Source: Gemmatimonadota bacterium (lineage in GTDB: Bacteria > Latescibacterota > UBA2968 > UBA8231). From it: DNA of 15,629 nt. Location of the stretch: the NCBI GenBank assembly GCA_038128265.1, contig JAYPJE010000063.1, forward strand, positions 1 to 15,629. The letters are read 5' to 3'. How positions within the stretch are numbered: the stretch's first letter is position 1; each line of letters opens with the position of its first letter. The translations under genes and the position numbers were made by a program. A model generated the notes under the pieces. It had not been told where the DNA came from. It ran no database searches and worked only from the letters and a program-made list of their open reading frames with translations. Of this stretch, positions 104 to 15,629 are shown piece after piece.

Positions 104-1819
104 CTACTCATCGAGCACGGCCCGCACTTTTTCGGCCAGCGCATCCAGCGAAAAGGGCTTCTGCAAAAAGTTCATGCCTGGCTCCAATACGTACGTCGTC
201 AAAACGACATTGTCCGTGTAACCCGACATGTAGAGCACTTTGGACTCGGGCATAATCGGCTCCAACAGCTCGACCATTTCCGGACCGCTCATCTTGGGCA
301 TGACGACATCGCTGAGAATCAGGTGGATGTCGCCTGTATACTGTTCGCACACCCGCATGGCATCCATCGGGTCTTCGCCTTCCAACACGGTATAGCCGCA
401 CTGCTCCAACGAGTGTTTGCACAGCTTGCGCACGGACTCGTCGTCCTCGACCAACAGGATCGTTTCGTCGCCGCCGGTGTGCATCTGCGCGCGCGGCAGC
501 TCTTCCACGCGAATTTCCGAATCGGCGTGCGGCAGGTAGAACTTAAACACCGTGCCCTTGCCCAGCTCGCTGTAGACCCAAATATATCCACCGCTCTGCT
601 TTATAATCCCGTATACCGTCGACAGGCCCAACCCGGTCCCCTTGCCGCGCGCTTTGGTGGTAAAAAACGGGTCGAAGATGCGCTGCTGCGTGGCGGCATC
701 CATACCCGTCCCCGTATCGGTAACGGCAACCATCGTATATGGACCGTAGGCGCCGGCTTTTACCACATCGTGCTGCATGGAATAGCTCTCGTCCATGGTG
801 ACGTTTTGCGTTTCCACAATAAACTTGCCGCCGTCTGGCATGGCGTCGCGCGCGTTGACGGCGAGATTCATTATGACCTGTTCGATTTGGCCCGGGTCGG
901 CTTTTACCTGACCGGCCTGCGGATCGAACGATGTTTGCAGCTCGATATCCTCGCCAATCAGCCGCCCGAGCATTTTTTCCAGCCGCCCGATAATCTCGTT
1001 GAGATTAATCACCTGCGTTTGCAGCACCTGGCGCCGACTGAAAGCCAGTAATTGACGCGTGAGCGAGACGGCTCCGTCGCTGGCCTGTTCAATTTCCCGG
1101 AGATTTTCCTGCACCGCATGGTCGGACGGCAGCAGACTCATAGCCAGCGAGTTATTGCCCGTAATGAGCATGAGCAGATTGTTGAAGTCGTGCGCCACGC
1201 CACCGGCGAGCACGCCGATCGCTTCCATTTTCTGCGACTGCTGAAGCTGCTCCTCCAGACCCGCGCGTTCATCTTCCGTTTTTCGCAGTTCTTCGCTCTG
1301 CTCGACGAGCTCGCGCGTGCGCGACTGCACCTGTTCGGCCAGTTCGCCGTTGAGCTTTTCTAGCTGATCGAGCATGTAGTTGATCGACAGGGCCAGACGG
1401 CCGATTTCGCCTTCTGGATTGCCCACCGGCGTGCGCTCACTCAAATCGCCGCGGGCAATACGCTCAGTGGCATTGATCACCGTTTTCAGCGGCCGAGTGA
1501 CAATACTGCTTATGAGATAAACGGCCAACAAACCCGCGATGAAAGTAACTACGCAGATGAAAACGAGGGCATCTCCAACGCGGGCAGCTCTTTCACTAGC
1601 TACGGCGACGGCCTCTTCGACTGCAGCGTCCCCATCGCCCACTCGACCCTGCGCCTCTAGTACGAGTGCCTGCCGCTCGCGCGCCTCGTACCACATGGGA
1701 TAGAATATCGCCGTGGAAGCGGCTATCAGGGCAAGAGCCAGACCACTCAGCAGCGTGAGCCGCACGCGGAGAGAGTACCGAGATAGGGGCGAAGCTGTAT
1801 TTGATTCGCTATTGCTCAT
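104..1819 (-). CDS. Membrane-bound hybrid sensor histidine kinase/response regulator (2 TM, HAMP, HisKA, HATPase_c, REC; CckA-like)
   Basis: Two hydrophobic segments; HAMP (ITRPL...IARGDL...EIGRLA); H-box AGGVAHDFNNLL; N-box NLAVNARDAM; G1 DTGTGM; F-box IFDPFFTTK; G2 GTGLGL; receiver LLVEDD...LSDVVMPKMSG...FLQKPF. Confidence 0.93.
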   Translation of the reverse strand: MSNSESNTASPLSRYSLRVRLTLLSGLALALIAASTAIFYPMWYEARERQALVLEAQGRVGDGDAAVEEAVAVASERAARVGDALVFICVVTFIAGLLAVYLISSIVTRPLKTVINATERIARGDLSERTPVGNPEGEIGRLALSINYMLDQLEKLNGELAEQVQSRTRELVEQSEELRKTEDERAGLEEQLQQSQKMEAIGVLAGGVAHDFNNLLMLITGNNSLAMSLLPSDHAVQENLREIEQASDGAVSLTRQLLAFSRRQVLQTQVINLNEIIGRLEKMLGRLIGEDIELQTSFDPQAGQVKADPGQIEQVIMNLAVNARDAMPDGGKFIVETQNVTMDESYSMQHDVVKAGAYGPYTMVAVTDTGTGMDAATQQRIFDPFFTTKARGKGTGLGLSTVYGIIKQSGGYIWVYSELGKGTVFKFYLPHADSEIRVEELPRAQMHTGGDETILLVEDDESVRKLCKHSLEQCGYTVLEGEDPMDAMRVCEQYTGDIHLILSDVVMPKMSGPEMVELLEPIMPESKVLYMSGYTDNVVLTTYVLEPGMNFLQKPFSLDALAEKVRAVLDE

Positions 1820-1921
1820 GATACCTAAACTACTGCGTTAGCATTGGTAACAGACGCTGCGGACAGCATATCGACTAATATAGCGATTTACCCAAAGGCT
1901 GCACCAAACGACGGCGCGGTA

Positions 1922-3082
1922 TCAGGCCAGCGCTTCGAGGTATTTATAACCGCTGCCCGTATTGAACAGCACGATGCGCTCATCGCCAGCAACCCAACCG
2001 CGCTCTTTCAGCTCCAGGAGTGCAGCCAGCGTGGCACCACCCTCGGGTGCGGGGAAAATACCCGTATGTGCTGCGATGCGATGGGAATGCTCGACGAGAG
2101 CGCGATCGCTAACGGCGATGGCCGTGCCGCCGCTGTCGCGCAGCGCGCGCAGCATGAGAAAGTCGCCGACGGCCGCTGGGACGCGCAGCCCCGAAGCGAC
2201 GGTGTGTGCATCCGTCCACATTTCAGCCGATTCCTCGCCCCTCTCAAAGGCGCGCACAATGGGCGCACAGCCCTCGGCCTGCACCGACACCATGCGCGGC
2301 CGCTCGCTGCCGATCAGGCCCATGCACTCCATTTCAGCAAAGGCCTTCCACATGCCAATAAGTCCGGTGCCACCCCCTGTCGGATAAATTATGACGTCGG
2401 GAAGCTGCCAGTCGAACTGCTCGGCCAACTCGTAGCCCATAGTCTTCTTGCCCTCCACGCGGTAGGGCTCTTTAAGCGTCGAGACATCAAACCACCCTTC
2501 ACCCTCTTTGCGCGCAGCGACGATCTTACCGCAATCGCTTATAAGGCCGTCGACCATTTCTACGGTCGCCCCGCTCGAACGGCATTCGATGGCAAAGGCC
2601 GACGGCGTGTCGCGCGGCATAAATACAAAAGCCGGCAAACCGCAGGCGGCCGCGTACGCCGCAAGGGCCCCACCGGCGTTACCCGCCGTGGGAATGGCCA
2701 AGGCCCGGGCACCGCGCGCGCGCGCCGCACTCACTGCGGCAGAAAGACCGCGCGCCTTAAACGAGCCCGTGGGATTGAGCGACTCATCCTTGATATAGAG
2801 ATCGGAAAAACCGGCCCACGCCCCCAACCGCTCAGCTCGATGCAGCGGCGTAAACCCCTCGCCAAGCGAAACGATTTCATCGGCAGAGCGTATGGGCATT
2901 ACTTCGCGATAGCGCCACATGGTAGGAGCGCGCTCTTTGAGCACTTCCGGTCGCAGCGTAGCAGCGGCCTTTTCTAGGTCGTAGCGCGCCAGCAGGGGCG
3001 CACCGAGCACAGAGAGATTGTGCAGCCCATCGGCGTCGTAGGTGCTCCCATCGCGGGCGCATTCCAGATGCGTCATGTACAT
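1922..3082 (-). CDS. thrC: Threonine synthase (PLP-dependent, fold type II)
   Basis: SLGEGFTPL, PLP-lysine motif NPTGSFKARG, TAGNAG, PYRVEGKKTMGYEL, YPTGGG, C-terminal FNTGSGYK. An alternative start at 3076 would give an ATGA overlap with the nadD stop. Confidence 0.85.
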   Translation of the reverse strand: MYMTHLECARDGSTYDADGLHNLSVLGAPLLARYDLEKAAATLRPEVLKERAPTMWRYREVMPIRSADEIVSLGEGFTPLHRAERLGAWAGFSDLYIKDESLNPTGSFKARGLSAAVSAARARGARALAIPTAGNAGGALAAYAAACGLPAFVFMPRDTPSAFAIECRSSGATVEMVDGLISDCGKIVAARKEGEGWFDVSTLKEPYRVEGKKTMGYELAEQFDWQLPDVIIYPTGGGTGLIGMWKAFAEMECMGLIGSERPRMVSVQAEGCAPIVRAFERGEESAEMWTDAHTVASGLRVPAAVGDFLMLRALRDSGGTAIAVSDRALVEHSHRIAAHTGIFPAPEGGATLAALLELKERGWVAGDERIVLFNTGSGYKYLEALA

Positions 3083-3657
3083 AGGGTGTAGAGTCCTTTT
3101 TCGCGAATGTAGTGTTCGACGGCGTCGGGCACCATGGCCCGCACCGGCAACCCGCTGTGCAGGCGCTGGCGAATTTGCGTCGATGACAATTCGATTAGCG
3201 GCGTGTCGATAAAGTGCATGTGCCGCACCAGTTCGGGATCAACCTCGGCCTCTTCGGCTAGGCGCTGGCCGGCGACAACAGTACAAAGGGACAAGATACC
3301 GTGCGGGTCGTGCCAGGTCGACATATGCCCCACATTGTCGCTGCCGATCACCAGAAAAAACGCGCTGTCGGGATAGAGCAGGTGCAGCTGACGCAGCGTG
3401 TCCACCGTATACGATTTACCCGGTCGATCTAACTCGATGCGCGAAGCTGAGCACGACTCAAGGCCGGCAATAGCCAGCTCAACCATGGCAAGGCGGTCGC
3501 CCGAATCGGCGTGCGTGCTGTCTTTATGGGGGGGATCTGCAGCGGGAATAAAAACAATCTCATCGAGGTCCAAAGCCTCGCAGGCAAACAGCGCCAGCAG
3601 CACGTGTCCGTTGTGAATGGGATCGAACGTGCCGCCAATCAATCCGATGCGCCGCAC
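3073..3657 (-). CDS. nadD: Nicotinate-nucleotide adenylyltransferase
   Basis: GGTFDPIHNGH (HxGH), PPHK, SYTVDTL, IGSD, W..P..I, LSSTQIR, VPDAVEHYI..KGLY; GTG start 4 nt after the bamD stop. Confidence 0.95.
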   Translation of the reverse strand: MRRIGLIGGTFDPIHNGHVLLALFACEALDLDEIVFIPAADPPHKDSTHADSGDRLAMVELAIAGLESCSASRIELDRPGKSYTVDTLRQLHLLYPDSAFFLVIGSDNVGHMSTWHDPHGILSLCTVVAGQRLAEEAEVDPELVRHMHFIDTPLIELSSTQIRQRLHSGLPVRAMVPDAVEHYIREKGLYTLCT

Positions 3658-3661
3658 CGAA

Positions 3662-4408
3662 CTACCCCGCTGAGGCGTTTAGCTGCGAGAGCGCGTCCTG
3701 GACTTCTTTCTTCAGCTCGGCGTCTTCGCTGTCGCGCAGCACCTCTTCCCAGTACTGCACGGCGCCATCGAGGTTGTCTTCTGCGCGGTCCAACTCGCCC
3801 AGGCGAAAAAGCGTGTAGTAGTACCACGACGTATCGGGATAGTCGCGCAGCACATCCTGAAAGGAGATGCGCGCGGCCTCCAAATAGCCCTGTCTCTGAT
3901 AGAGGTAGGCGCTGCGATAAATCTTTTCGGCCAGATTGGCGCGGCAGGTAACAATGCGCGCACGCGCCGTCTCCACCCGCGGCGAAGACGGGTTGTCCTC
4001 TATGAAATTGCGAAATGCCAGCAGCGCATCGAAGGTCTCTTTCTGATCCAGTTCGGGGCGGCGCATCTGCTTAAAGTAGGACTCTCCTATTTTGAACTGC
4101 GCTTCTTCGGCCCACTCGCTAGCCGGATAGATATCGATCAGACGCTGGTACTCAAAAGAGGCATTTACGTAGTCTTCACTGCAAAAAAAGGCTTCGGCCA
4201 GCATATACTGCGACTCGGCAACGTACTGTGAACCGGGAAAGTTACTGACCAGGCGCTGGAAGTGTTCAGATGCTTCAACACAGCGCCCTTTCTCAAGGGC
4301 TTTTTGCCCTTCGTCGTAGTAATAATCAGCGCCTTGCAGCTTTTCCGGCGTGCTCGCACAGGCCATTAAGTAGCAAGCAGCGGCGATAAGGGCGATATAA
4401 ATTTGCAT
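3662..4408 (-). CDS. bamD: Outer membrane protein assembly lipoprotein BamD
   Basis: Lipobox-like LMA-C; TPR helices with FPGSQY, YPASEW, RPELDQKET..A...F..FIEDNPSS and LAEKIY..A..Y, all typical of BamD/YfiO. Confidence 0.88.
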   Translation of the reverse strand: MQIYIALIAAACYLMACASTPEKLQGADYYYDEGQKALEKGRCVEASEHFQRLVSNFPGSQYVAESQYMLAEAFFCSEDYVNASFEYQRLIDIYPASEWAEEAQFKIGESYFKQMRRPELDQKETFDALLAFRNFIEDNPSSPRVETARARIVTCRANLAEKIYRSAYLYQRQGYLEAARISFQDVLRDYPDTSWYYYTLFRLGELDRAEDNLDGAVQYWEEVLRDSEDAELKKEVQDALSQLNASAG

Positions 4409-4415
4409 AGGTAGA

Positions 4416-5054
4416 TTAGCGATTGGAAAAGAATAAGTAGATCAGCCCACCTAGAACGGTTGAGACGACCATGGGTTCGACGAACTTACTCCAACTTTGT
4501 TCCTCCAACTCAGTCTGCGCGAATTTGTAGGTGGAGTGCTGGAGGATCTCAAGCTGGTTTTTGGGAATGCGATCGGCCCGCAAGCGCGTGACTTCGTCCT
4601 GCCAGTAGACGATGTGATCGCTTTCGCGGTTGAGGCGCAGGGCCAGCGATGCCCGGCTCTGCCGATCGGCATGTGCTCCCCTCAGCCCCGACTGCGCGGT
4701 AATCCCCATGTCGAGTATGCGAAAGGAAAAGCGCATGCTCTCGGGCCCGGCGTTGGTCGAATCTGCCACGATGGAAAATCCGCGATCAAGCAGGCGCTGC
4801 GCCAGCACGTGCTCAACCAACCAGTTGGCGTCGTGGCGACCTTGTGCCGCTATAAAAAGAGGTGCTGCTGCCGCTTCGGCAGGCACCTCAAGCCCGGCCA
4901 GTGACTCGTCAATGGCGTCTTCCACGGCGACCACTAGCGCATCCATATTGCTCGGGTAGGGGGCGATTGCAGCAGCGGAAAATGGACCTATGAGCAACAG
5001 GGCAATAAGTCGCCCAAGACCGCTGCGCAGCAACCGGAAAAATGCATGACCCAT
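4416..5054 (-). CDS. Hypothetical exported protein with a C-terminal hydrophobic segment (212 aa)
   Basis: Start moved to the ATG at 5054, which forms a TAATG overlap with the upstream stop. The ORF-track start (5180) would overlap the upstream gene by about 126 nt. N-terminal signal-like stretch (RLIALLLIGPFSAAA); C-terminal VEPMVVSTVLGGLIYLFFSNR. Confidence 0.75.
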   Translation of the reverse strand: MGHAFFRLLRSGLGRLIALLLIGPFSAAAIAPYPSNMDALVVAVEDAIDESLAGLEVPAEAAAAPLFIAAQGRHDANWLVEHVLAQRLLDRGFSIVADSTNAGPESMRFSFRILDMGITAQSGLRGAHADRQSRASLALRLNRESDHIVYWQDEVTRLRADRIPKNQLEILQHSTYKFAQTELEEQSWSKFVEPMVVSTVLGGLIYLFFSNR

Positions 5055-5752
5055 TACAGGCCACCGAGGTATTTTAGCTCTTTGCGAGCGGTAGCGGCGT
5101 ATTCGCTTTCGGCAAACTCGGCCAGCAGCTTGCGAAAGGCTGCGATGGCCTGGTTGCGATCGCCGAGCGCCAGATAGCAACGCCCCACTTTGAGCTGCGC
5201 ATCGTCAGCCTTTTCCGTTTTGGAAAAAGCGAAGACCTTGGTAAACTCGGCTAGGGCCTGGCGAAACCGTCCCAGCCCGTAGTAGCACTCACCCTTCCAA
5301 TACTGCGCGTTGTCAGCCCACTCGCCGTAGGGCGCTGCCGCCAAAACGCGATCGAATTCCACCACGGCCTGCTCGTATTGCTTCTGGTTATAAATGGCCA
5401 GTGCATTCTGATAGAGCGAAAGCGCATCGTCATCCCTACTGCGGCTGGCGCTGGGCGGACGCAGTGGGCGCGTATGCAGCGAGTCCAAGCGCGCGCGTAG
5501 ACTCTGCGTCTCGTTGCGCAGCGCACTCAGCTGCTGGCGCATCTCGGCGGCACTCTCCTCTGCCTGGCGCAGGCGATCTGCCATGGCGCGCTCGCGGTCA
5601 TACGACGACTCTACGGCGCGCTTGAGCGCCTCGACGTCTTCGCGCTGCGCGTCCTGCCAGCTGTCCAAACGCTGGTCTACCTGACCCGGCGTTGCGCAGG
5701 CGCCCCACCCCAAGAGGAAGGCGCATAGAGGTATTTTGGCGTGCTTAAACAT
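5054..5752 (-). CDS. cpoB: CpoB/YbgF-like coiled-coil + TPR protein, probable lipoprotein
   Basis: Lipobox-like WGA-C, N-terminal coiled coil, then YQNAL..YNQKQYEQA, ADNAQYWKGECYY, KADDAQLKVG, matching the YbgF/CpoB TPR pattern. No tolB/pal in this window, so orthology is uncertain. Confidence 0.7.
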   Translation of the reverse strand: MFKHAKIPLCAFLLGWGACATPGQVDQRLDSWQDAQREDVEALKRAVESSYDRERAMADRLRQAEESAAEMRQQLSALRNETQSLRARLDSLHTRPLRPPSASRSRDDDALSLYQNALAIYNQKQYEQAVVEFDRVLAAAPYGEWADNAQYWKGECYYGLGRFRQALAEFTKVFAFSKTEKADDAQLKVGRCYLALGDRNQAIAAFRKLLAEFAESEYAATARKELKYLGGL

Positions 5753-5812: not shown

Positions 5813-8599
5813 TTATTTGCTATCTGCGCGGAACACCAAATCTTCGGGCGGATTAATTGCAAACTCCTCGCAGCGATCGGCGTAGAGCGCAGACGGTCCG
5901 TCGTCCGGTTCGATTTTTAGCGCCTCTTCAAAAAGCGCGCGCGCCTCGTTGAATTCGTACTTCCAGTAGGCTTCCATACCGCTGTTGTACAGCGCCAGCA
6001 CCTGCATCATTTCTTCGCTCAATTCGCCCTTGCGCTCTAGCACCTCGTAGGCGACGACCGGCTCCTCTTTGCCGACCACCTGAATCAGGTCGAGCTGGCG
6101 CGCCTCAACCAAATCCTTTACCTGCTCATAGATCTGGTCGTTCACCATAATATTTGTCCCGTAGATTTTCTGACCGCTCTCAAAGCGCGCGGCCAGGTTC
6201 ACGGTATCGCCCATCATGGTGTAGTCGGTGCGGCTGCGCGATCCCATATTACCGACGATCATTGGACCCGCCGTAATGCCGATACGCACCTGTGCAAAGG
6301 TGCGCCCCTGGCCCTGCCAGCGGTCGCGCAGTTCTTCGAGACGCGGCGGGATAGCACCCGGTTCGTTCCAGCGCTTGCGCAGTTCGACGAGCATATTCTG
6401 CTGGTCTATGCAGGCCATCACCGCCCGCGTCGCGTGGTCGTCGTAGTAGAGCGGTGCGCCGAAGAAGGCGACGATGGCATCGCCTTCAAATTTGTCGATG
6501 GTGCCGCCGTAGCGCTCGATGATATCGCACATCTCGGTGAGATAGCCATTGATAAAATCGACGAGCTCAGCCGGCGTCAAACACTCGGAGATGGTCGAGA
6601 AACTGGCGATATCCGAAAAGAACGCCGTCATAATGCGCTCTTCGCCGCCAAGCTGGTTGACCATATCCGGATTTTCCATAATCTGCTCAACGACAGCGGG
6701 CGACAGGTAGTGACCAAAGGCCCCCTGGACGAACTCTTTTTCCTTTTCCTTAATGATGTAACCGTAAATTGTCAGCGCTAAATAGCCCACTACGATGGTT
6801 AGCATGGGGCCTATAAACTCCAGCCAAACGCCCTGCGTAAAGGAGTATATGACGAGGACGGAGTAGACCGTTCCCAACCCGAAGATGAGCAGGGCGCCCT
6901 GCAGCACCTTCAGGCGCGGCACGGCCAGCGACATCGCCAGACCCAGCAGTAGGATAAGAGCCACGCGGGCCCACACCGGCGTGCGGCTTATGAAGGCATC
7001 GTTTAATATGGTGTTGAGCACGTTGGAATAGATACCAACCATCGGGTAATTACCCTGAAAGGGAATTACGCTAAGGTCGGTGCTACCCGTCGACGTCTGT
7101 CCGTAAAACAGAATTTTGCCCTGCAGTTCATCCGGCGTGATAAGGCGTCCCTGTGCGCTGCGATAGGGATAGAAGTAGAGGGGACGCGCCAGGTCTTCGA
7201 CCTTACCTTCAACCAGATGCTGACGGACAAAGTAGAGGCTCTGCTGGAGATCCTCGCCGTCTTCTTGCGGCATTGCAGCCTGTAGTCCGGCCAGATCAAT
7301 GTCGGGATTCTCCTCCAAGAGCGTGGCTACGCGGTTGTTACGGCGTATTTGATTGTACATCAGCAGCTGAGCTTCCTGGGGCTCTTTGACGCCCTTCGAT
7401 GCCCAGAACGCGCTGGCTTCTTGGTCGGGCTGTTTGCGCACGACGGCCTCGATGCCACCGGCCTGCATCCACGTGACCAGCGCACCGCGCACGGCGCGTT
7501 GATCGTCGTAGCCCTGCGCAGCCATCAGCCCGGGCAGGGGGCGCGGGTTGCGTCGCAGCGCCGGATCGGCAACGACCAACTCCTTTATTTTATCGAGCAG
7601 CTTTTCGCGATCTTCGCGCTGGGCAGCCCTACGCAGAGCGATGTGCGGATAGCGCACAAAGGTTTCCTCCCAGCGGCCGGCCCAGTTTACGTTCATCGTG
7701 CCGTGCTCATCAATGGGAATCTTTATGTCCTTGACTGTTCCATCGGCAAAACGCGCATTGGGTAGGAGCACGTGATCGCCGGGCCACACCTTTACCTCAG
7801 ACAGCGGCACCTGCAGGTGATCGCAGGCGATGTTCAGCGCAATCGATGGGAATAGGATGTCCTTATACTGAAACACGACCGGATAGCGCCGGCGCGCACC
7901 GTCAAAGTCCTCTGTCGTCTGTGCATAGGAATAGCCGCGCGCGGCCTCGCGCAAAACGGCAATAGGCGGCTCAAAATTGGTGGCCTTGCTAAGACCGCTC
8001 TCTTCGGCGGGAACCATCAGGCGCGGCGAATTGGCTCGTATGAGTTCCAGCACGCCCTGCTTCTCCTCGTCGAGGGGTGGATACGTTAATTCTCCCTCTT
8101 CCTCCTCCTCTTCTTCCTTCACGTTGAGGTACTGGGCCAAATACACGTTGTCGGCCTTTTCAATGGCGCGACCAAAGCGCGCGTCGTAGTCGGCCTCGGA
8201 GAGCAGTTTCTCAATCCCCTGTTTGTCAATAGACGACAGGCCTCGAATCTGCTTTTCCGTCAGCAGCCTAGTAATGGGTTCGGGATAGTAGATGTCAAAT
8301 CCGATCCGCTCAGCGCCGTACTCGCCCATGATGCGCACGACGTCGATATACTCAACGCGCGTCCAATTCTGCCAGCGGCCTTCAACTTCCAACGTTTGGT
8401 CATCGATTTCTATCGTGCCGAGATTCGGATTCATCGGCGGGAGGCCGAAGATGGAGTTGCGGATATTAAAGCGCCAATCATAGCTTACCAACTCCGCGCG
8501 CTCGTAGGCTTTCGTCAGGGCGAAGAGCAGCACGAGCAAACCGACAATGGGTCCCAGATAAAGCTGTAAGCGAGGGTCGTCTTTCTTTGCATCCGCCAT
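5813..8599 (-). CDS. CHASE2-domain class III adenylate cyclase with a C-terminal TPR-like helix pair
   Basis: N-terminal TM; CHASE2 motifs (ELVSYDWRF, IEIDDQTL...W..W.R, IGFDIYY.EP, DFDGARRRYP, QGKILFYG); 3 TM helices; AFGHYLSPAVVEQI. Catalytic residues: FFSDIASFS (metal Asp), IDKFEGDA (ATP-specifying Lys plus metal Asp), GNMGS..RTDYTMMGDTVNLAARFE (adenine-specifying Asp, transition-state Asn/Arg), VVGKEEPV. Confidence 0.92.
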   Translation of the reverse strand: MADAKKDDPRLQLYLGPIVGLLVLLFALTKAYERAELVSYDWRFNIRNSIFGLPPMNPNLGTIEIDDQTLEVEGRWQNWTRVEYIDVVRIMGEYGAERIGFDIYYPEPITRLLTEKQIRGLSSIDKQGIEKLLSEADYDARFGRAIEKADNVYLAQYLNVKEEEEEEEGELTYPPLDEEKQGVLELIRANSPRLMVPAEESGLSKATNFEPPIAVLREAARGYSYAQTTEDFDGARRRYPVVFQYKDILFPSIALNIACDHLQVPLSEVKVWPGDHVLLPNARFADGTVKDIKIPIDEHGTMNVNWAGRWEETFVRYPHIALRRAAQREDREKLLDKIKELVVADPALRRNPRPLPGLMAAQGYDDQRAVRGALVTWMQAGGIEAVVRKQPDQEASAFWASKGVKEPQEAQLLMYNQIRRNNRVATLLEENPDIDLAGLQAAMPQEDGEDLQQSLYFVRQHLVEGKVEDLARPLYFYPYRSAQGRLITPDELQGKILFYGQTSTGSTDLSVIPFQGNYPMVGIYSNVLNTILNDAFISRTPVWARVALILLLGLAMSLAVPRLKVLQGALLIFGLGTVYSVLVIYSFTQGVWLEFIGPMLTIVVGYLALTIYGYIIKEKEKEFVQGAFGHYLSPAVVEQIMENPDMVNQLGGEERIMTAFFSDIASFSTISECLTPAELVDFINGYLTEMCDIIERYGGTIDKFEGDAIVAFFGAPLYYDDHATRAVMACIDQQNMLVELRKRWNEPGAIPPRLEELRDRWQGQGRTFAQVRIGITAGPMIVGNMGSRSRTDYTMMGDTVNLAARFESGQKIYGTNIMVNDQIYEQVKDLVEARQLDLIQVVGKEEPVVAYEVLERKGELSEEMMQVLALYNSGMEAYWKYEFNEARALFEEALKIEPDDGPSALYADRCEEFAINPPEDLVFRADSK

Positions 8600-8605
8600 G
8601 TGGAG

Positions 8606-8612
8606 ACCTCCC
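8606..8612 (-). promoter_or_regulatory. Shine-Dalgarno site of the cyclase gene
   Basis: GGGAGGT 6 nt upstream of the ATG at 8599. Confidence 0.7.
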
Positions 8613-8639
8613 GTGAGGTGAGCGTTGATTACTTAGTAT

Positions 8640-8674
8640 AATAAAAAATGGAAGGCCCGAGGACCTTCCATTTT
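8640..8674 (-). terminator. Rho-independent terminator after the small TPR gene
   Basis: Minus strand AAAATGGAAGGTC-CTCG-GGCCTTCCATTTTTTATT: perfect 11-bp inverted repeat (8645-8655/8664-8674) running into a U-tract, starting 20 nt after the stop at 8695. Confidence 0.8.
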
Positions 8675-8694
8675 CACTAAGCTTTTTCGGCTGT

Positions 8695-9207
8695 CTATTC
8701 GACGCTCATCTGGCTTATTTTGTTTTGCGCCTTCGCCGCGTAGGGCGACTGCGGGAACTCTTTGGCAACCTGCGAGTAGTAGTCGCGCGCCTGCGCCGGC
8801 TTGCCGAGTTTTTCGTAGCACTGAGCGACGAAAAACTTCTGCTTGGGTGCATTGGCCGATTTGGGATCCTTGCTCAAGGCATCTTGCAGCGTCTTGATAG
8901 CCTTCAGCAGCTTGTCTTGCGAAGGAGCGCGCTTGCCGCCTTTGTAGTAGAGCTTGGCGAGAATATTGTCTTCGGCCTCGGCGCCGCGCACACCGGCCAC
9001 AGTGACCGTTTCCTGCAGTTTGAACTCTTCTTCCTTGACCATATCGTCGACCTGAGTCCAAACCGTATTGAGCCAATCCTCATCGCCTTCGGCACCCGCT
9101 GCATCAGCGGCTTCGGCGGGTTGAGCTTCGGCTTCGCCCTCCTGGGCGGCAACGGGCACCGCACCCAACAGGGCTATGAGCAAATAAAAAAACTTGGCAT
9201 TCTTCAT
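8695..9207 (-). CDS. Small secreted TPR protein with TVAGVRG motif (170 aa)
   Basis: Start placed at ATG 9207 (MKNAKFFYLLIALLGAVPVAA-QE signal peptide) because AAGGAGGT lies 8 nt upstream. Acidic Ala/Glu linker, ETVTVAGVRGAEAED, LYYKG, C-terminal TPR (FFVAQCYEKLGKPAQARDYY..VAKEFPQSPYA). Confidence 0.85.
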   Translation of the reverse strand: MKNAKFFYLLIALLGAVPVAAQEGEAEAQPAEAADAAGAEGDEDWLNTVWTQVDDMVKEEEFKLQETVTVAGVRGAEAEDNILAKLYYKGGKRAPSQDKLLKAIKTLQDALSKDPKSANAPKQKFFVAQCYEKLGKPAQARDYYSQVAKEFPQSPYAAKAQNKISQMSVE

Positions 9208-9215
9208 CAGATTGC

Positions 9216-9223
9216 ACCTCCTT
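9216..9223 (-). promoter_or_regulatory. Strong Shine-Dalgarno site
   Basis: AAGGAGGT, a full anti-SD complement, 8 nt before ATG 9207. Confidence 0.8.
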
Positions 9224-9272
9224 TTCAAGGTGACGGGCTTTATTTCTAAATATCGGCGCATGAGCGCAATGA

Positions 9273-9294
9273 ATACATGATCTACATCACATTA
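9273..9294. promoter_or_regulatory. CRP/FNR-family (cAMP-CRP-like) binding site
   Basis: Plus strand ATACATGATCTACATCACATTA versus E. coli CRP consensus AAATGTGATCTAGATCACATTT: 17/22 identical, one perfect TCACA half-site, 6-bp spacer; lies in the 145-bp intergenic gap. Confidence 0.65.
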
Positions 9295-9352
9295 GAGGAT
9301 TTTTTTCTATCCACGTTATAGACTGCTGTCTATGTGGCGAAGTTCCGCTCTC

Positions 9353-10372
9353 CTATTCCTCTTCGTCCAGGAAGTTCAAAAATCCCTGGTAGCGGTCATC
9401 GGATTCGACAACCTGGCGGTAGATTACCTGCGCCTCGTTGCGCCTTCCCTGCAAATAGCGCACGATCGCCATATTGAGCATCACGCCGGGATGCGAGGGC
9501 ATCAACCGTTCGGCCTCTTCCAGCAGCGCGTAGGCTTCGTCATACTGACCGCTATGCGAAAGGACCACGGCCTTGGCGTTGTAGGCGTCGCCCATTTGCG
9601 GATCGGCAGCGATTGCCTTGTCGAGGCGCTCCAGCGCGCGACCGTATTCTTCCTGCTGCATATAGGCCGACGCAATGCGATAGAGCTCTTCGGCCGATTC
9701 GACCTCGGCGAGAAAGTCGAGCAGGCCGCCATAGGCGTCGTCTTCGTTAATAATCTGCTGGTAGAGCGCGTCGGCGCGATCGCGATCGCCCTTCAAATAG
9801 TAGATCAGCGCAATATTGAGGCGGAAACCCGTCTGGCTCGGATCGATTGAAGCCGCCTTCTCATAGAGCGCCTGGGCCTCGTCGTACTGGCCTTTATGCG
9901 TGAAGACTACGCCCTTGGCGTTGTAGGCATCGGCGTATTGCTCGTCGGCGTTAATGGCCTCTTCGAACTGCGCCAGCGCCAGGTCAAAGCGGTTCTGGCG
10001 CAGGTAGGCCGTGCCGATATCGTAGGATTCCTGCGCGTTGCCCACTTCGGCCAGAAAGTCGAAGAGTTCCATATAGGAACCGTCGCGTGCAACGACTTCC
10101 TGAAAGAGCCGGTCGTAGGTCTCGCGCTCGCCCTTCAGGTAGTAGGTGAGGGCGATGTTCATGCGCACGCCGGTATTGTCGTCAAACTGCAGTGCGCGAC
10201 GATAGTACTCGAGCGACTCGTCGTACTGGCCCTTGTGGGTGAGAATGACGCCCAGCGCGTTGAGCGCATCGAAATTCTCGGGCTGCATGGCGAGGACGCG
10301 CTCAAACATCGAAAAGGCTTTTTCCAGATGGTTGACGCGCAGATAGGCGGCGCCGGCATCGTAGAGCCCCTC
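9353..10372 (-). repeat. Three tandem ~113-aa protein super-repeats (3 TPRs + capping helix each)
   Basis: Units 10372-10034 (113 aa), 10033-9692 (114 aa) and 9691-9356 (112 aa) share DAxNAxxVxxxHxGQYDE, NxAxxxYLxGxR and DxxYxxxxxFLxE. Confidence 0.85.
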
Positions 10373-12403
10373 GGGCGTATCGAGCGATACCGATGAGCCT
10401 AGCGCAATCTGATCGACGCGCTGGTCAAAGAAGGCGATATCGCGATTGAGTAGACTGTCCATCAGCGCCGATTCGGGTAGCGAAACGGTGCGCGGTGGCA
10501 GCGTAGCCGGCTTGTAGGTCTGGAACAGCTGCTGCACGTAAAGCTCGTCAATCAGCTTGCGCGGCTTGAGGCGCTTGTATTCGGCGGCGCCGTTGCGCCA
10601 GGCATCGGCGAACGTGAAGCCGTACATGGTAGTTTCGACCGGAATCCACACGCGCCCCTGCCAGACCACATACTCGGCTGAAGACAGAAAGTGGTCTTCG
10701 GCGCGGTCGGGCGAAATGCCGCTGTCAAACATCATGTAGATGTGGCCCTTGCCCGGATCGTTGGCTTCGAGAAAAGCCGTGTCGATACTGAGGTTTTCTA
10801 GCAGCGAAGCAAAGAGCACCGTCAGGTCATCGCAGTCACCAATCTTCGTCTCGACGCCTTCGGGCTTTTCCAACAGCTCGCTGGGATACTGAACCGTATC
10901 AAAAATCGTCTTGTCGTCGGAAACGCTGGCAAAGGGCGTCTTTTGGTCGGCCTGGTAGCGAATGCGATAGGAGCCCAGCGCATTAAAGAGAATGGTCGCT
11001 TTGCCGATATTGGAGCGGTTGAACTTCTCGGCCAGCAGGTCGTTATAGCGCTGCACGAGACCGCGCGCCAGGCTAGCCACGGACATGTCTTCTGGAGTGA
11101 CAAAAGCGGCAGCCATGCCCTTTACGTTCCAACTCAGCTTGCCCTTGCCGGCTACGTAGATGCGCTCGAGCTGCTTTTCGGCGAACTGATCCTGGCGATT
11201 GCGCTGGTAGTCGACGCGCACGATCGGCGTCACAAAATTGTCGTAGTAGGCCTCATCCCGATTGAACAGGTCGGTATCGAACGTCACCTTAAAGGTGTAT
11301 TTCTCGTTGCTCTGCGGCGGCAGCGTAACCTGTTCGCGGTGCGGCACGCTCATCACTTTGGGCAAGAACAGCGAGACGCTCGCCTCGATGGCCTCGGTCG
11401 CCGAGTTGGAAATTACGACATCGAAAAAATCGTTTTCCTGATAGTGAGGGTAGAGCGAGCGAAAGACCGGATTGGGACGAATCAGCGCGTCTTTGATATT
11501 GATCACGCGCGGGTTGTACGCCAATGCAATCGAAGTGTAGTGCGTCGGCGCCAGCACGGGATGGCGCTCGTAAGCGTAGTCGATCTGTGCAAAGCGATAC
11601 TTGAGACCGAGACCAAAGGTGGTCGTCGTCGCGTCGGCAAAGGACTCGGGCGTGTCGCGCTCGGTTGCCACGCCGGCGCGCAGGGCCAGTAAGCCGCGCA
11701 GCCAGTACTCGGCACCCAAGTGAAACGAATCGTCTATATCGGCACCGATGGTCAGTCCTTCAACCGGTCGATGGGCGAGGCCAAAGCGGTAGCGCGTTTC
11801 GTAGACCGGCTCGGATACGCCGCTCTCGTACTGCAGATCGGTGCCGCCCAGATCCTGCGCAACAAAGGCGAGGCGAAGGCCAAAGGGCAGCGGAGCGAGC
11901 AGACCCACATCAAAGCCCCAGCCCGATGCGCTGCCCAAATTGTTGCCGTCGAGATCGACGCTAAACGAGCGGTACTTGCCGCTTACGCCAATAGCCGTGT
12001 TGCCGATGAGGGGACGCAGGCGCTGAATGCCGTTGCGATAGCCGTAGGCGAAAGCCAGCTTGTTCTGGCCAGTATTAAGTTCGGAATCGTCAAAGCCCGA
12101 GTAGAGCCAGTCGACGCCAATGGCGTGCTGGTCGCCAACCGGCAGCACGTAGTTCAGGTAGGAGTGATTGAGGCCCAAGCCATAGCGATCGGCGTAGGCC
12201 AACCCGATTTCCTGTCGCTGCAGCGACGCCAGCGCGGCCGGATTCCAGTGGGCAGCGCTCGCATCGGAGGCTACTGCACTGAAGGCCCCGCCCATGCCAA
12301 TGGCGCGCACGCCCACCATCTCCTGACGCGGTGCAGCCAACGTCGACTGGGCGGCTATCAGCGCGATGCCCAAGATCGCAGCTAGTACGCTCCGGTAATT
12401 CAC
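9353..12403 (-). CDS. Fusion protein: PorV/PorQ-like outer-membrane beta-barrel + Ig-like domain + transglutaminase-like cysteine-protease core + 9 TPRs
   Basis: Signal peptide; GVRAIGMGGAFSAVASDASAAHWNPAAL (PorV/FadL-like N-terminal motif) and amphipathic strands ending IDYAY...THYTSIALAY (about aa 296); GDCDD (Cys524), GHIY (His554), WIPVETT (Glu590); C-terminal TPRs. GTG start overlaps the upstream stop (GTGA). Confidence 0.82.
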   Translation of the reverse strand: MNYRSVLAAILGIALIAAQSTLAAPRQEMVGVRAIGMGGAFSAVASDASAAHWNPAALASLQRQEIGLAYADRYGLGLNHSYLNYVLPVGDQHAIGVDWLYSGFDDSELNTGQNKLAFAYGYRNGIQRLRPLIGNTAIGVSGKYRSFSVDLDGNNLGSASGWGFDVGLLAPLPFGLRLAFVAQDLGGTDLQYESGVSEPVYETRYRFGLAHRPVEGLTIGADIDDSFHLGAEYWLRGLLALRAGVATERDTPESFADATTTTFGLGLKYRFAQIDYAYERHPVLAPTHYTSIALAYNPRVINIKDALIRPNPVFRSLYPHYQENDFFDVVISNSATEAIEASVSLFLPKVMSVPHREQVTLPPQSNEKYTFKVTFDTDLFNRDEAYYDNFVTPIVRVDYQRNRQDQFAEKQLERIYVAGKGKLSWNVKGMAAAFVTPEDMSVASLARGLVQRYNDLLAEKFNRSNIGKATILFNALGSYRIRYQADQKTPFASVSDDKTIFDTVQYPSELLEKPEGVETKIGDCDDLTVLFASLLENLSIDTAFLEANDPGKGHIYMMFDSGISPDRAEDHFLSSAEYVVWQGRVWIPVETTMYGFTFADAWRNGAAEYKRLKPRKLIDELYVQQLFQTYKPATLPPRTVSLPESALMDSLLNRDIAFFDQRVDQIALGSSVSLDTPEGLYDAGAAYLRVNHLEKAFSMFERVLAMQPENFDALNALGVILTHKGQYDESLEYYRRALQFDDNTGVRMNIALTYYLKGERETYDRLFQEVVARDGSYMELFDFLAEVGNAQESYDIGTAYLRQNRFDLALAQFEEAINADEQYADAYNAKGVVFTHKGQYDEAQALYEKAASIDPSQTGFRLNIALIYYLKGDRDRADALYQQIINEDDAYGGLLDFLAEVESAEELYRIASAYMQQEEYGRALERLDKAIAADPQMGDAYNAKAVVLSHSGQYDEAYALLEEAERLMPSHPGVMLNMAIVRYLQGRRNEAQVIYRQVVESDDRYQGFLNFLDEEE

Positions 12404-13860
12404 GGTTCCACCACCGTTTCCTGGTCACCTCCCTGTAATCCGGTGAGGCTTATGGAGGAAGCTGAGCCGGGAAAGCGCACTTCGAGGCGGTATTCCGAAC
12501 CTCCCAGCACGCCAAATGAAAGGCCCGCAGCATCGGTGACGTAGCGGAAACCCACAAGTCGATCGCCGGAATCGAAGAGGCTTACGCTAGCGCCTAAGCA
12601 GGTTGCGTTGGCCCCGCCCAGCTGACCGCCCTTGCCCAGCACCTGCACCTTGATAAAGCTGCTGCCCGGCGTCTCGTTCTGGAAGAGCAGGTTGCCGCTG
12701 CCAAAGCCATCCGTCATATAAAGGTCGGGCGCACCGTTGCCGTCGTAATCGCCCCAGCGCGCGGCAAAGTGAACGCTGCCGCCCGTGGGCAAATTGGCAA
12801 ACGCCGTAACATTGTCAAAAGTGCCGTCGTTATTATTGGCGTAGAGAATATCGCGCTGAAACTGTCGATCACTGCCGGTGGCCAAGTAGAGGTCGAGAAA
12901 GCCGTCGCCGTCGTAGTCGGCCCAGTCGGCCATGGATGTGAACCAACCGGCGTTGTCTATGCGCACGCCGGCCAGGTCAGCCACTTCGACAAAGGCGGAA
13001 CCCCCGTCGTTTTCGTAGAGCGCATTGGCGCCGATATTGGCCAAATAGAGATCGAGATCGCCGTCGTTATCGTAATCACCCCACGCGCCGTTGAGACCGA
13101 TTTCATTGTTGGCCACGCCGAGCGCAGCCGACACTTCGGAAAAGGAACCGTCGGAACTCAAATCATTGCGATAAAACTGGTTTTCTTGCTCGCGATTGAC
13201 TGTGTATAGATCGGGGTCGCCGTCGCCGTCGTAATCGGCCCACAGCACGGCGTTGGTGTCACGGCCATCGCCCACATCGAGGTCGGTCACCGGGGTAAAC
13301 GTGCCGTCCCCGTTGTTGTTATACAGTTCGTTGGCGAAGTAAAACTTACCCAAATAAAAGTCGACGTGACCGTCGCCGTTGTAATCGCCCCAGCCCACGG
13401 AAGTGACGTTGCCGCGGCGCTCCAAGTTGACCAGACCGCGACTGCGTCCCACCTCGCTAAAGGTGCCGTCGCCCTGATTCTGATAGAGAAAATCCTGAGC
13501 GTAAAAATCGGCAATGTAGAGGTCGAGGTCGCCGTCGTTATCGTAGTCGGCAAAGGCCGCCGCTACGCTATTGCCGTTATTGTCGACCCCAGCTACGGCG
13601 GCCGCGTCGACAAAAGACCCGTCGCCCTGGTTCTCGAAGAGTGCGTTGATCGGGTTAGTAACCGCCGTGCCCCAGTTGGTCGTGTAGAGGTCGAGATCGC
13701 CGTCCCCATCGTAGTCGCCCCAGGCCAGGTTGGTGCTGAACAGTCCTGCATTGAGCGTGCCGCTAGCCCCCGACAGGTTCTGGAAGGTCTGCGCAGCAAC
13801 AGAGCTGCTCAGGAAGGTTGAGGTCAGCGCGGCGCTGAGTATGTAGTTTCGCAAGCGCAT
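12400..13860 (-). CDS. Secreted FG-GAP/VCBS repeat beta-propeller protein (CRTAC1/ASPIC-UnbV-like)
   Basis: Signal peptide (SSVAA-QTF); seven W/F-G/A-DY(D/N)xDGxxD(L/F)Y Ca-binding repeats, mostly followed by LYxNxxDGTF-type motifs; degenerate ASPIC/UnbV-like tail (FIKVQVLG...NATCLGASV...SFG...EVRFPG). Confidence 0.88.
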   Translation of the reverse strand: MRLRNYILSAALTSTFLSSSVAAQTFQNLSGASGTLNAGLFSTNLAWGDYDGDGDLDLYTTNWGTAVTNPINALFENQGDGSFVDAAAVAGVDNNGNSVAAAFADYDNDGDLDLYIADFYAQDFLYQNQGDGTFSEVGRSRGLVNLERRGNVTSVGWGDYNGDGHVDFYLGKFYFANELYNNNGDGTFTPVTDLDVGDGRDTNAVLWADYDGDGDPDLYTVNREQENQFYRNDLSSDGSFSEVSAALGVANNEIGLNGAWGDYDNDGDLDLYLANIGANALYENDGGSAFVEVADLAGVRIDNAGWFTSMADWADYDGDGFLDLYLATGSDRQFQRDILYANNNDGTFDNVTAFANLPTGGSVHFAARWGDYDGNGAPDLYMTDGFGSGNLLFQNETPGSSFIKVQVLGKGGQLGGANATCLGASVSLFDSGDRLVGFRYVTDAAGLSFGVLGGSEYRLEVRFPGSASSISLTGLQGGDQETVVEP

Positions 13861-13861
13861 A

Positions 13862-15629
13862 TTACCTCACCACAGCGACGGTTTTCTCGCGGCGCACATC
13901 GCCGGCATTGACAACCACGATATAAAGGCCACTGGACACGGCCCGACGATCCTCGTCCAGTCCGTTCCACTTGAGCGATATGCGACCCGGTGCCATCGGC
14001 TCGTCGCGCACGACGACGCGCTCCAACTTGCCAGCGCTGTTGTACACGCGCACCGTCACATCGGCCGGACCAGTCAAATCAAACGAAATATCCGTTTCGC
14101 CGCGCAGCGTGGCGCTACCGGGCGCAAAGGCGCGCGGCTGGCAGTCGAGGTCGCGAATAGCTAGATCGCCAACGCCCGTCGACAGGTCTTCGAAAATGGC
14201 GAAGGTGCCCAATTGATCGACGGACGTGCGCACCACTTTGGCCTGCGGATCGACGCTGCCGCCAATGCGCGACCACTGACCGCTGTCATCGGCGCGAAAA
14301 ATAGCCAAGTGCGTAGGATCGCGATCGCCCAGCTCTTCGGCGCTGTAGTGCATCGTCAGCGTAGCGCGCTTGGACAGCGCGCCGACCTGTGCCCGCACCG
14401 AATAGGCCGCCGTTATCTGCGTCGTCTCCTGGGCGAGCTTGCCCGCTCCTGCAGCGAGCCTGCGAATGGCAATCTCGCTGCTGCCGGCCGGTAAGGCGTT
14501 GGGCGGAAAGTAGAGCTCGAGCGTGCCGCTGGCATTCTTCACATTGCCACCCTGGCGCGCATCGGCCAGGCTGGTTGCCGTGCGAAAGCTCCAGCTGTAG
14601 CCCTCGGTGGCCAGTTCGCCGAGCACCTGTGCATCCATCGAGATCGTGTATTCGGTGAACGGCTTCAGCCCGCCGGCGATCGAGAAGCTGATTACCGTGC
14701 CCGTTGAATCGGCACCAAACCCCGTCAACGTCACCACCTCAGACGCGGCATCTGCATCGGCTAGCGAACGGGCCGAAATCTGGAAGTCGCGCGCCAGCTG
14801 GCGTGCAACGGGCGCCGAAAAGGCGATCTGCACGTTGGACGACGCCAATCCAATGCCTTCTTCGCCGTTGGCCGGCGTCGTTCTGACAACGCTGGGCACT
14901 TCGGTCGTAAAAGACCAGTTGAGATCTTCAAGCCCGATGGCCGCTGCCAATGGACCGCTGGCCAGGGCCTGCGCGCTGGCGCTATACGCGGCACCGGAAC
15001 GCAGCACCACGCTGGGAAAGCTGACAGTAAACGTCTGCGAATCGTAGGAAAACTCGTCGCTGGCCAGCGGGATGAGTGCCCCCCCACGGCGCAGGCGGAA
15101 GTTCTGGTTGTTGATCAGGGCCGGATCGAGCGGGCCAGAAAAAACAACCTGCAAGCGCTGGGCGCCCGGCGGCACGGTCGCTTCTGCGGCGGGTCTGGTC
15201 GCCACTGGGCTGGGCACGCGCGTGGCGAAATCCCAATTATAGGCCGCACCGTCTCCCTGGAGCGGACCGCCTACATCCGAGGATACGCGCACTGAATAAG
15301 CGCTGCCCGGCTGCAGGCCTTCGCTGGCATTAAAGCTCAGTACGTTGCTGCCCGGATCAAAGGCCGGAGTCGTGATGGGGATGGCAATGCCGCCCTGTAG
15401 CAGGGTTACAGCCCCCTCGCCGCGCAGAGCTTCTTCGTCGATAGAGCCATTAAACTGTGCGCTAATGGCCGTGCCCATATCGATCACAGCCGTATCGCCC
15501 GATGCCGGCGCGGTCGACGTCAGCTCCGGCACAGCCGAGCTAAAGCTGATGGTCTGCACCTGCCCCGAACCCAGCGGACCGCTCACGCTGGGCGCAATCT
15601 GCAGCTCGTAGCGCGTGCCTACGCGCCAG
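13862..15629 (-). CDS. Large Ig-repeat (Big_5/SbsA-like) surface protein with ZU5-like domain and FlgD-Ig/T9SS-type C-terminal domain; 5' end lies outside the window
   Basis: The frame stays open past the ORF-track start to the window edge (WRVGTRYELQIAPSVSGPL...). Three full repeats of P.v..t.Pa......F...l/v...L.pg..Y....W.F.T; then GG..........FPPNAL...LAIFR....QW..IGG.VD; then PRAFAP...ISFDL...VTVRVYNSAGKL...WNGLDEDRRAVSSGLYIV...VAVVR-stop. Confidence 0.85.
   Translation of the reverse strand, partial: WRVGTRYELQIAPSVSGPLGSGQVQTISFSSAVPELTSTAPASGDTAVIDMGTAISAQFNGSIDEEALRGEGAVTLLQGGIAIPITTPAFDPGSNVLSFNASEGLQPGSAYSVRVSSDVGGPLQGDGAAYNWDFATRVPSPVATRPAAEATVPPGAQRLQVVFSGPLDPALINNQNFRLRRGGALIPLASDEFSYDSQTFTVSFPSVVLRSGAAYSASAQALASGPLAAAIGLEDLNWSFTTEVPSVVRTTPANGEEGIGLASSNVQIAFSAPVARQLARDFQISARSLADADAASEVVTLTGFGADSTGTVISFSIAGGLKPFTEYTISMDAQVLGELATEGYSWSFRTATSLADARQGGNVKNASGTLELYFPPNALPAGSSEIAIRRLAAGAGKLAQETTQITAAYSVRAQVGALSKRATLTMHYSAEELGDRDPTHLAIFRADDSGQWSRIGGSVDPQAKVVRTSVDQLGTFAIFEDLSTGVGDLAIRDLDCQPRAFAPGSATLRGETDISFDLTGPADVTVRVYNSAGKLERVVVRDEPMAPGRISLKWNGLDEDRRAVSSGLYIVVVNAGDVRREKTVAVVR

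Follow-up and report, generated by a model that had tools for sequence, protein, structure and literature searches.

Do the co-oriented genes near the start of a contig from an uncultured bacterium carry a signal from the cell surface to cyclic AMP (cAMP)? The question is raised by the window analysed here, the whole stretch of 15,629 nucleotides (nt) that makes up the first 15.6 kb of the 21.6-kb contig JAYPJE010000063.1 and starts after an assembly gap. The assembly (GCA_038128265.1, our source genome G000) is named as Gemmatimonadota; close homologues carry the label Latescibacterota. The first-pass annotation had described five minus-strand genes, for a surface protein, an FG-GAP propeller, a PorV-like barrel fused to a Cys-His-Glu core, a small periplasmic protein with a VAGVRG motif (the partner) and a CHASE2 adenylate cyclase, and had read them as a trans-envelope relay with feedback through CRP. 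All five open reading frames (ORFs) were found in the same orientation (the partner's as 8695-9261, the others as given in Table 1), as were the 1-nt gap and the GTGA overlap between the first genes. The first gene is not an immunoglobulin-like (Ig) protein of 574-588 amino acids (aa), as had been thought, since its ORF is open at the end of the window and encodes 2249 aa in full. From comparative sequence data we conclude that the five genes together with an unlinked CRP gene very probably form one functional system. A protease-gated trans-envelope cAMP relay is its best explanation, to which we give a probability of roughly one half.

The co-occurrence of the genes across genomes had been suggested as a check of the relay. 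Gene order was counted for all 60 non-self partner matches (E <= 1.2e-16) from 168 genomes of the phylum. Where enough DNA was available, the arm with the transglutaminase-like (TG) core lies upstream of the partner at 51 of 56 loci and CHASE2 downstream of it at 51 of 57, with the catalytic domain present in 45 of these 51. The exceptions comprise an insertion, a truncated barrel gene, the two decayed loci and four extra partner copies, whose genomes have the full module at another place. The same gene order is seen in four loci of other families or classes (L092-L095). With an Ig-TG profile we examined 29 loci from the best 80 of 454 GTDB matches; 26 are more distant and include KSB1, Marinimicrobia and two Latescibacterota. 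In each of the 24 of these that have enough DNA the partner gene comes after the barrel gene, and the CHASE2 cyclase is found downstream in 7 and, after rearrangement, upstream of the giant surface protein gene in 12. The association thus holds in Latescibacterota, KSB1 and Marinimicrobia, even after rearrangement. Of 52 loci, 48 have an FG-GAP match upstream of the partner, a count to which matches in the giant protein can contribute; as a separate gene the small propeller is absent from L092-L095 and from the Marinimicrobia loci. The relay passed the suggested check, and co-occurrence and joint decay support it in part; the small FG-GAP gene is an accessory.

When 75 other genomes of the family were compared, 35 had the partner, TG and CHASE2 genes together with an unlinked CRP, and another 35 lacked all of them. 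The remaining five are two decayed sister genomes (G103 and G104), one with weak TG paralogues (G114, 73% complete), one with CRP only (G148, 78%) and one with another CHASE2 (G154). In five of five module-less genomes, representing five genera, rfaE adjoins cpoB, which is a clean block deletion. A midpoint-rooted tree of CpoB, a 254-aa protein and BamD was made for 36 genomes; of the 40 that lack the full module it includes 7. The module-less genomes fall into five separate lineages on it, and the sister group of each, supported at 97-100%, consists of module-bearing or decayed genomes. On this tree the module was lost at least five separate times. A link to type IV pili was considered and rejected, as PilM matches do not track the module and none was found in the source genome.

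The two decayed genomes (1 and 10 contigs, 92-93% complete) keep the giant protein, the propeller, the barrel protein and the partner, but neither CHASE2 nor a class III cyclase nor a CRP orthologue turned up in a search of both. They hold the only two of 54 TG cores in which His554 is replaced (H554R in both) and the only two of 61 partners without Arg74-Gly75 (AGVRG changed to AGVPP), and they have no CRP box. Their partner is 39% identical to that of the source genome, versus 57-72% in 24 others. Barrel and TG core are slightly below the range of identity, and propellers, C-terminal domain (CTD), tetratricopeptide repeats (TPRs) and flanking genes are within it. This pattern of decay ties the catalytic His and the partner motif to cAMP signalling, both being kept only where cyclase and CRP are kept. 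Since the display genes are normal in these genomes without the catalytic His, surface display does not need the enzyme.

The enzyme is part of a 1016-aa protein with a barrel (residues 30-293), an Ig domain (299-420), a TG-like core (about 425-665) and then TPRs. The PorV-like nature of the barrel was borne out by NF033709 (PorV/PorQ), which matches over model positions 11-323 of 326 with 92 bits (cut-off 90), and C524, H554 and E590 were found where the Cys-His-Glu core had been placed. Cys is conserved in 54 of 54 TG cores, His in 52 and Glu in 53, one core being truncated. A structure model of the Ig-TG arm protein has a predicted local distance difference test score (pLDDT) of 92.9. It matches 3kd4 (Z 9.6, root mean square deviation (rmsd) 3.1, 137 residues aligned), transglutaminase TG2 (Z 9.0, rmsd 4.2, 179 aligned), TglA (Z 9.0) and LapG (4fgo; Z 8.5, rmsd 3.5, 145 aligned), and the top Foldseek rows for the core are TG2 and TG3. 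The Z values are middling, but by its fold the modelled core belongs to the transglutaminase-like superfamily. Profile searches of the PDB returned nothing for the arm, and the ESM Atlas gave only clusters without a name or labelled TPR/transglutaminase. A periplasmic location of the enzyme is probable from the topology of the barrel and from homologues that a membrane helix precedes.

The same arm occurs elsewhere. A type II PorV-barrel-Ig-TG-TPR gene is paired with a Reg_prop propeller CTD cargo at L096-L099, L106 and L111. At L102-L105, L107, L109 and L110 the arm is fused to Reg_prop/Y_Y_Y propellers or stands after a membrane helix joined to an nSTAND2 NTPase. We regard it as a mobile extracytoplasmic enzyme module. 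Two genomes (G131 and G120) have a second giant-propeller-barrel-TG copy with Cys and His intact (L124 and L131), and at L124 neither partner nor cyclase follows it.

The partner most likely starts at 9207, giving 170 aa, as this start has AGGAGG upstream and yields a signal peptide; a 170-aa version is also in the database. The signal peptide is followed by a helix, an extended VAGVRG-AEAED motif and a TPR pair. R74 and G75 are kept in 59 of 61 partners, and AGVRG in 24 of 24 further partners from the more distant loci. When the partner alignment was used for a profile search, TPR proteins crowded the results. Extra partner copies reading TAGGVRG or TAAGVRG (L070, L073, L079, L089) lie away from any CHASE2 gene; two of them precede a DegT-type aminotransferase and one sits two genes before a type II barrel-TG gene.

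The cyclase consists of a predicted transmembrane segment, a CHASE2 domain with a helical insert, three more predicted transmembrane segments, a class III catalytic domain and a C-terminal TPR region. CHASE2 and catalytic domain are both above the Pfam cut-offs, and the catalytic set reported earlier is complete and of the Lys/Thr type (two Asp, the Lys/Thr pair, Asn/Arg): D663, K703, D707, T794 and N801 are present in 47 of 47 aligned cyclases and R805 in 46. The CHASE2 sensor is widespread, and PMC5192318 states that its signal is unknown. The CHASE2 model (pLDDT 85.9) found no clear structural match in the PDB (best Z 4.7), and a PDB profile search gave nothing meaningful. Complex prediction for the periplasmic part of CHASE2 with the partner (score 0.00, mark 0.32) speaks neither for nor against binding. 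In two families (L074-L077, L081-L087) a convergent ORF of about 640-690 aa comes after the cyclase, the one at L076 being an S41/PDZ C-terminal protease, and at L069 a CdaA-type diadenylate cyclase gene follows, with a similar ORF in L088.

The CRP-like box claimed before the partner does not stand out in the window alone, where 6 matches were found versus 3.8 expected. It is the conservation in relatives that supports it: a box with at most 2 mismatches is present in 35 of 49 barrel-to-partner spacers, with 3.4 expected in random stretches, and downstream of the partner in just 4 of 48 loci. The box is absent in L068 and L072. A conserved CGAt..T follows it in 33 aligned spacers, and the spacing of 29.5 nt to the -10-like hexamer is the geometry of class II activation as known from E. 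coli CRP, with a transcription start predicted at about 9242, which would put the box centre at -41.5. The ends of two contigs from close relatives' RNA libraries, at 9240 and 9245, are a weak hint in the same direction, one contig covering 8687-9240; another contig spans the box. Both runs may come from a single campaign, and their contigs hold small shares of the region, from which level and strand are not readable. Of 52 loci, 44 have a terminator-like hairpin 3' of the partner gene, 24 of the hairpins being on the opposite strand, and a generic promoter and terminator scan gave nothing above chance. Because of this hairpin between partner and cyclase, co-orientation does not imply a single transcript, and together with the predicted class II promoter, conserved among relatives, it points to the partner as its own transcription unit and not part of one operon. 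Box conservation and class II geometry thus support the proposed CRP feedback, and cAMP-CRP most likely raises the partner alone.

The source genome has one CRP, on contig C50 and unlinked to the module, with a GE...RS motif that we take to be cAMP-binding and an RETVSR helix motif. A genome scan with a rough gene model gave 15 intergenic CRP boxes; where a gene follows, it mostly encodes a secreted protein that has no Pfam name. Good boxes at G000:C5:113925, C58:19703, C25:2187 and C47:29798 point to a candidate CRP regulon that would comprise a pair of low-complexity secreted proteins similar to each other, another secreted protein encoded upstream of an M4 peptidase, and a CTD protein of 1468 aa.

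The 2249-aa surface protein has a signal peptide, two FG-GAP regions, FN3, Big_5 repeats and a CTD resembling FlgD-Ig and type IX secretion system (T9SS) domains. This CTD scores 16.9 bits with TIGR04183 (type A), below the cut-off of 23, and 33.7 bits with FlgD_ig (cut-off 27), and has about 40 paralogues in the source genome. A SprA/Sov translocon is present (a 2163-aa ORF on C26), SprA occurs in 74 of 75 other genomes of the family, and two PorU-like C25 peptidases are above cut-off in the source genome. The GldN and GldM models found no match in 5 genomes, the control genomes giving none either.

Table 1. Positions of the features in the window (all on the minus strand) and the basis of each assignment
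Feature	Position	Strand	Basis
2249-aa surface protein, C-terminal part	13862..15629 (full G000:C63:13862-20611)	-	domain matches
486-aa secreted FG-GAP propeller, accessory	12400..13860	-	domain matches
1016-aa PorV-family barrel + Ig + TG core + TPRs	9353..12403	-	domain matches, model
Candidate catalytic residues C524 (10832-10834), H554 (10742-10744), E590 (10634-10636)	10634..10834	-	conservation
CRP box TGTGA-N6-TCATG	9276..9291	-	2 mismatches, conserved in relatives
-10-like hexamer GATATT, 29.5 nt from box centre	9249..9254	-	conserved spacer element
170-aa periplasmic partner	8695..9207	-	domain, conservation
VAGVRG motif (residues 70-75), putative site of cleavage and ligand for CHASE2	8983..9000	-	conservation
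Intrinsic-terminator-like hairpin and T run after partner	8643..8674	-	44/52 loci
928-aa adenylate cyclase	5813..8599	-	domain matches, alignment

Several known systems resemble parts of the module. In the LapA-LapG-LapD system of Pseudomonas, soluble LapG is held by LapD, and a type I-secreted adhesin is released from the inside out. A periplasmic TG-fold cysteine enzyme, a giant surface protein and an inner-membrane cyclic-nucleotide protein are shared with it; here, in contrast, a barrel carries the enzyme as a fusion, there is no GGDEF/EAL protein next to it, and cAMP is the product of the linked receptor. Closest in working is NsrA-CyaK/CyaD1/CyaD2-Clr of Sinorhizobium meliloti, which, according to PMC13001267, PMC7529298 and PMC5498481, has an outer-membrane barrel with TPRs upstream of a CHASE2 cyclase, a CRP-family output and, beside the cyclase, the CRP target SMc02177. 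A further likeness is that the upstream component contains an [AG][VI]RG strand. NsrA, however, has the motif in its own FecR domain, whereas here it is on a separate small protein and no FecR domain (PF04773) match was found in the source genome; also, the present barrel is of the PorV type, bears a TG-fold enzyme and is paired with T9SS-like cargo. As in the cognate T9SS shuttles PorV and PorP/SprF, a CTD cargo gene is linked to its own PorV-family barrel, with SprA and PorU-like peptidases in the genome, but the known shuttles (PMC12618676) are barrels only. T9SS state also feeds an inner-membrane sensor in PorA-PorXY, where, in the account of PMC12152298, the PorA CTD binds a histidine kinase with no fused enzyme and no small partner. 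FecR signalling likewise uses a periplasmic relay protein with a conserved Gly, the cut being shown for FecR and proposed here. FecR is a self-cleaving anti-sigma factor cut in xxLG-T (PMC12036975), whereas the partner reads xxRG-A. The module would work like NsrA-CyaK-Clr, and its enzyme shares a fold with LapG, yet it belongs to neither system. A literature search, mainly of open-access papers, found none on the module or on an RG-motif ligand of CHASE2; a prior remark on the FecR site of NsrA is possible.

The motif links these systems further. The S. meliloti gene upstream of cyaK, which we take to be nsrA, encodes 1197 aa with FecR and TPR domains; its FecR domain has TPAAAAAIRG-TDW, to be compared with ETVTVAGVRG-AEAED of the partner. 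AGVRG matches the counterpart, in this FecR domain, of the Gly-Thr strand at which FecR cleaves itself (PMC12036975). We examined 30 FecR loci of the phylum for CHASE2 neighbours. Nine of the xLG-T/xTG-T type stand mostly before TonB-receptor genes and none by CHASE2; the RG-T type is found by CHASE2 at six loci, and its others have no CHASE2 within 1.5 kb. Neighbours of other CHASE2 cyclases include SH3-M48 proteins with AAIKG, TPR-CHAT proteins with a small protein carrying AGNVRS or LGAVRD, and a caspase with HGMARN. A relaxed motif pattern is present in an adjacent ORF at 16 of 23 other CHASE2-cyclase loci, with a background of 0.07 per 250 aa, and several of the motif-bearing neighbours adjoin CHAT or M48 proteases. 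Five genomes of another family (L199-L203) carry a 370-aa lipoprotein-like gene, an SH3-AAIKG-M48 peptidase and a CHASE2 cyclase.

A protease-gated relay would run as follows. The giant CTD protein would leave through the SprA translocon and dock on its own PorV-type barrel, and occupancy or strain of the barrel, or a ligand of the propellers, would gate the fused periplasmic cysteine enzyme, which would cut the partner at or beside Arg74-Gly75. In the partner Gly is not followed by a Thr/Ser nucleophile, and a match to the FecR fold is also lacking, so that any cut must come in trans; whether the TG enzyme makes it at the motif seems to us evenly balanced. The exposed basic end would then act on the CHASE2 domain and switch the cyclase, somewhat more probably on than off. 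NsrA is required for CyaK activation and more of it gives more sensitivity (PMC7529298), which favours an activating ligand, and CyaD1 without CHASE2 is reported to be constitutive (PMC5498481), so that the sensor restrains the enzyme at rest. Finally, cAMP-CRP would activate the stand-alone class II promoter and restock the partner, which would be amplification if the cut form activates and adaptation if the intact form inhibits. Partner cleavage, partner-CHASE2 binding, the sign of the switch and the signal sensed by the surface protein are what we infer from these data.

The co-occurrence and co-decay data would all fit as well if nothing were cut, and the partner were an adaptor shuttling by its motif between the barrel protein and CHASE2, with the Cys-His site binding or cross-linking it (transamidation) and the signal consisting of sequestration or release. 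The fold is common to true transglutaminases, and conservation extends to the sequences flanking the proposed cut on either side (AEAED, LYY). Strict conservation of Cys and His, together with a loss of His that coincides exactly with the loss of signalling, nevertheless points to catalysis, and unrelated proteases stand at other CHASE2 loci, which makes such an adaptor rather unlikely. The enzyme could instead act on the surface cargo, by LapG-like release or PorU-like processing or anchoring of the CTD, with the partner as regulator of the enzyme and the cyclase doing no more than reporting on or controlling that step. This would account for the type II barrel-TG genes beside CTD cargo genes and for the extra copy at L124, which lack the partner; LapG is also among the fold matches, and a periplasmic CTD can be a sensor ligand, as described for PorA-PorY (PMC12152298). 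We think it unlikely, as giant protein, propeller and barrel are normally conserved in the two genomes without the catalytic His, and two PorU-like peptidases are already in the genome. That the display operon and the cyclase-partner pair are merely unrelated neighbours, as their separate transcription units and the gene order shared among kin would allow, is highly improbable, since the linkage survives the Marinimicrobia rearrangement, the genes are deleted as a block and the His of the surface module decays together with the cyclase.

A number of observations weigh against the protease-gated relay. The arm linked here to partner and CHASE2 is not specific to them: the type II loci have Cys and His intact with no adjacent partner or CHASE2, the arm also occurs with other cargo and fused domains (Reg_prop, STAND) lacking both, and G009 and G010 have TG arms and a related CHASE2 cyclase with no partner found. 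The motif reads VA(V)AARR in four distant loci, so that Gly75 is not universal. The decay in G103 and G104 is a single event, and none of four loss genomes tested has any class III cyclase, so that co-loss with CRP may partly reflect a wholesale loss of cAMP signalling. As to the parallels, no CHASE2 lies within 1.5 kb of eight FecR proteins of the RG type, all from one family, the cross-family motif was set after seeing the data, covers about four protein families and is absent at 7 of 23 loci, and SMc02177, a FecR protein and Clr target, is reported in PMC5498481 to be dispensable for signal perception.

Downstream of the module the window (107-5752) holds a cpoB-like gene, a 254-aa lipoprotein-like gene, bamD, nadD, thrC and a HAMP hybrid histidine kinase gene. 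The order from cpoB to thrC is conserved in the family and persists where the module is deleted. The 254-aa ORF (4416-5180) has no Pfam or NCBIfam match and always lies between cpoB and bamD in the family; its real start is probably near 5049, and a paralogue is found at G000:C4:68200-69981.

Tentatively, CHASE2 domains in general may be receptors for a basic peptide end exposed by proteolysis (...[AG][VI]R or ...RG), which would be made by FecR-type self-cleavage in NsrA, by CHAT/caspase or M48 proteases elsewhere, and here by a TG-fold enzyme tethered to a T9SS shuttle barrel, which would couple surface-protein state to cAMP. If this were true, protease-gated trans-envelope signalling would be a class so far unrecognised, with this locus as its T9SS-linked form. 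C524, H554, R74 and G75 are named residues for direct testing, and the shared motif predicts that the AIRG-T site of S. meliloti NsrA matters, in a system that is tractable. The relay, if true, would add an enzyme-bearing sensing role to PorV-type shuttle barrels outside Bacteroidota, and the module, from an uncultured marine-type bacterium, hints at what CHASE2 sensors detect.

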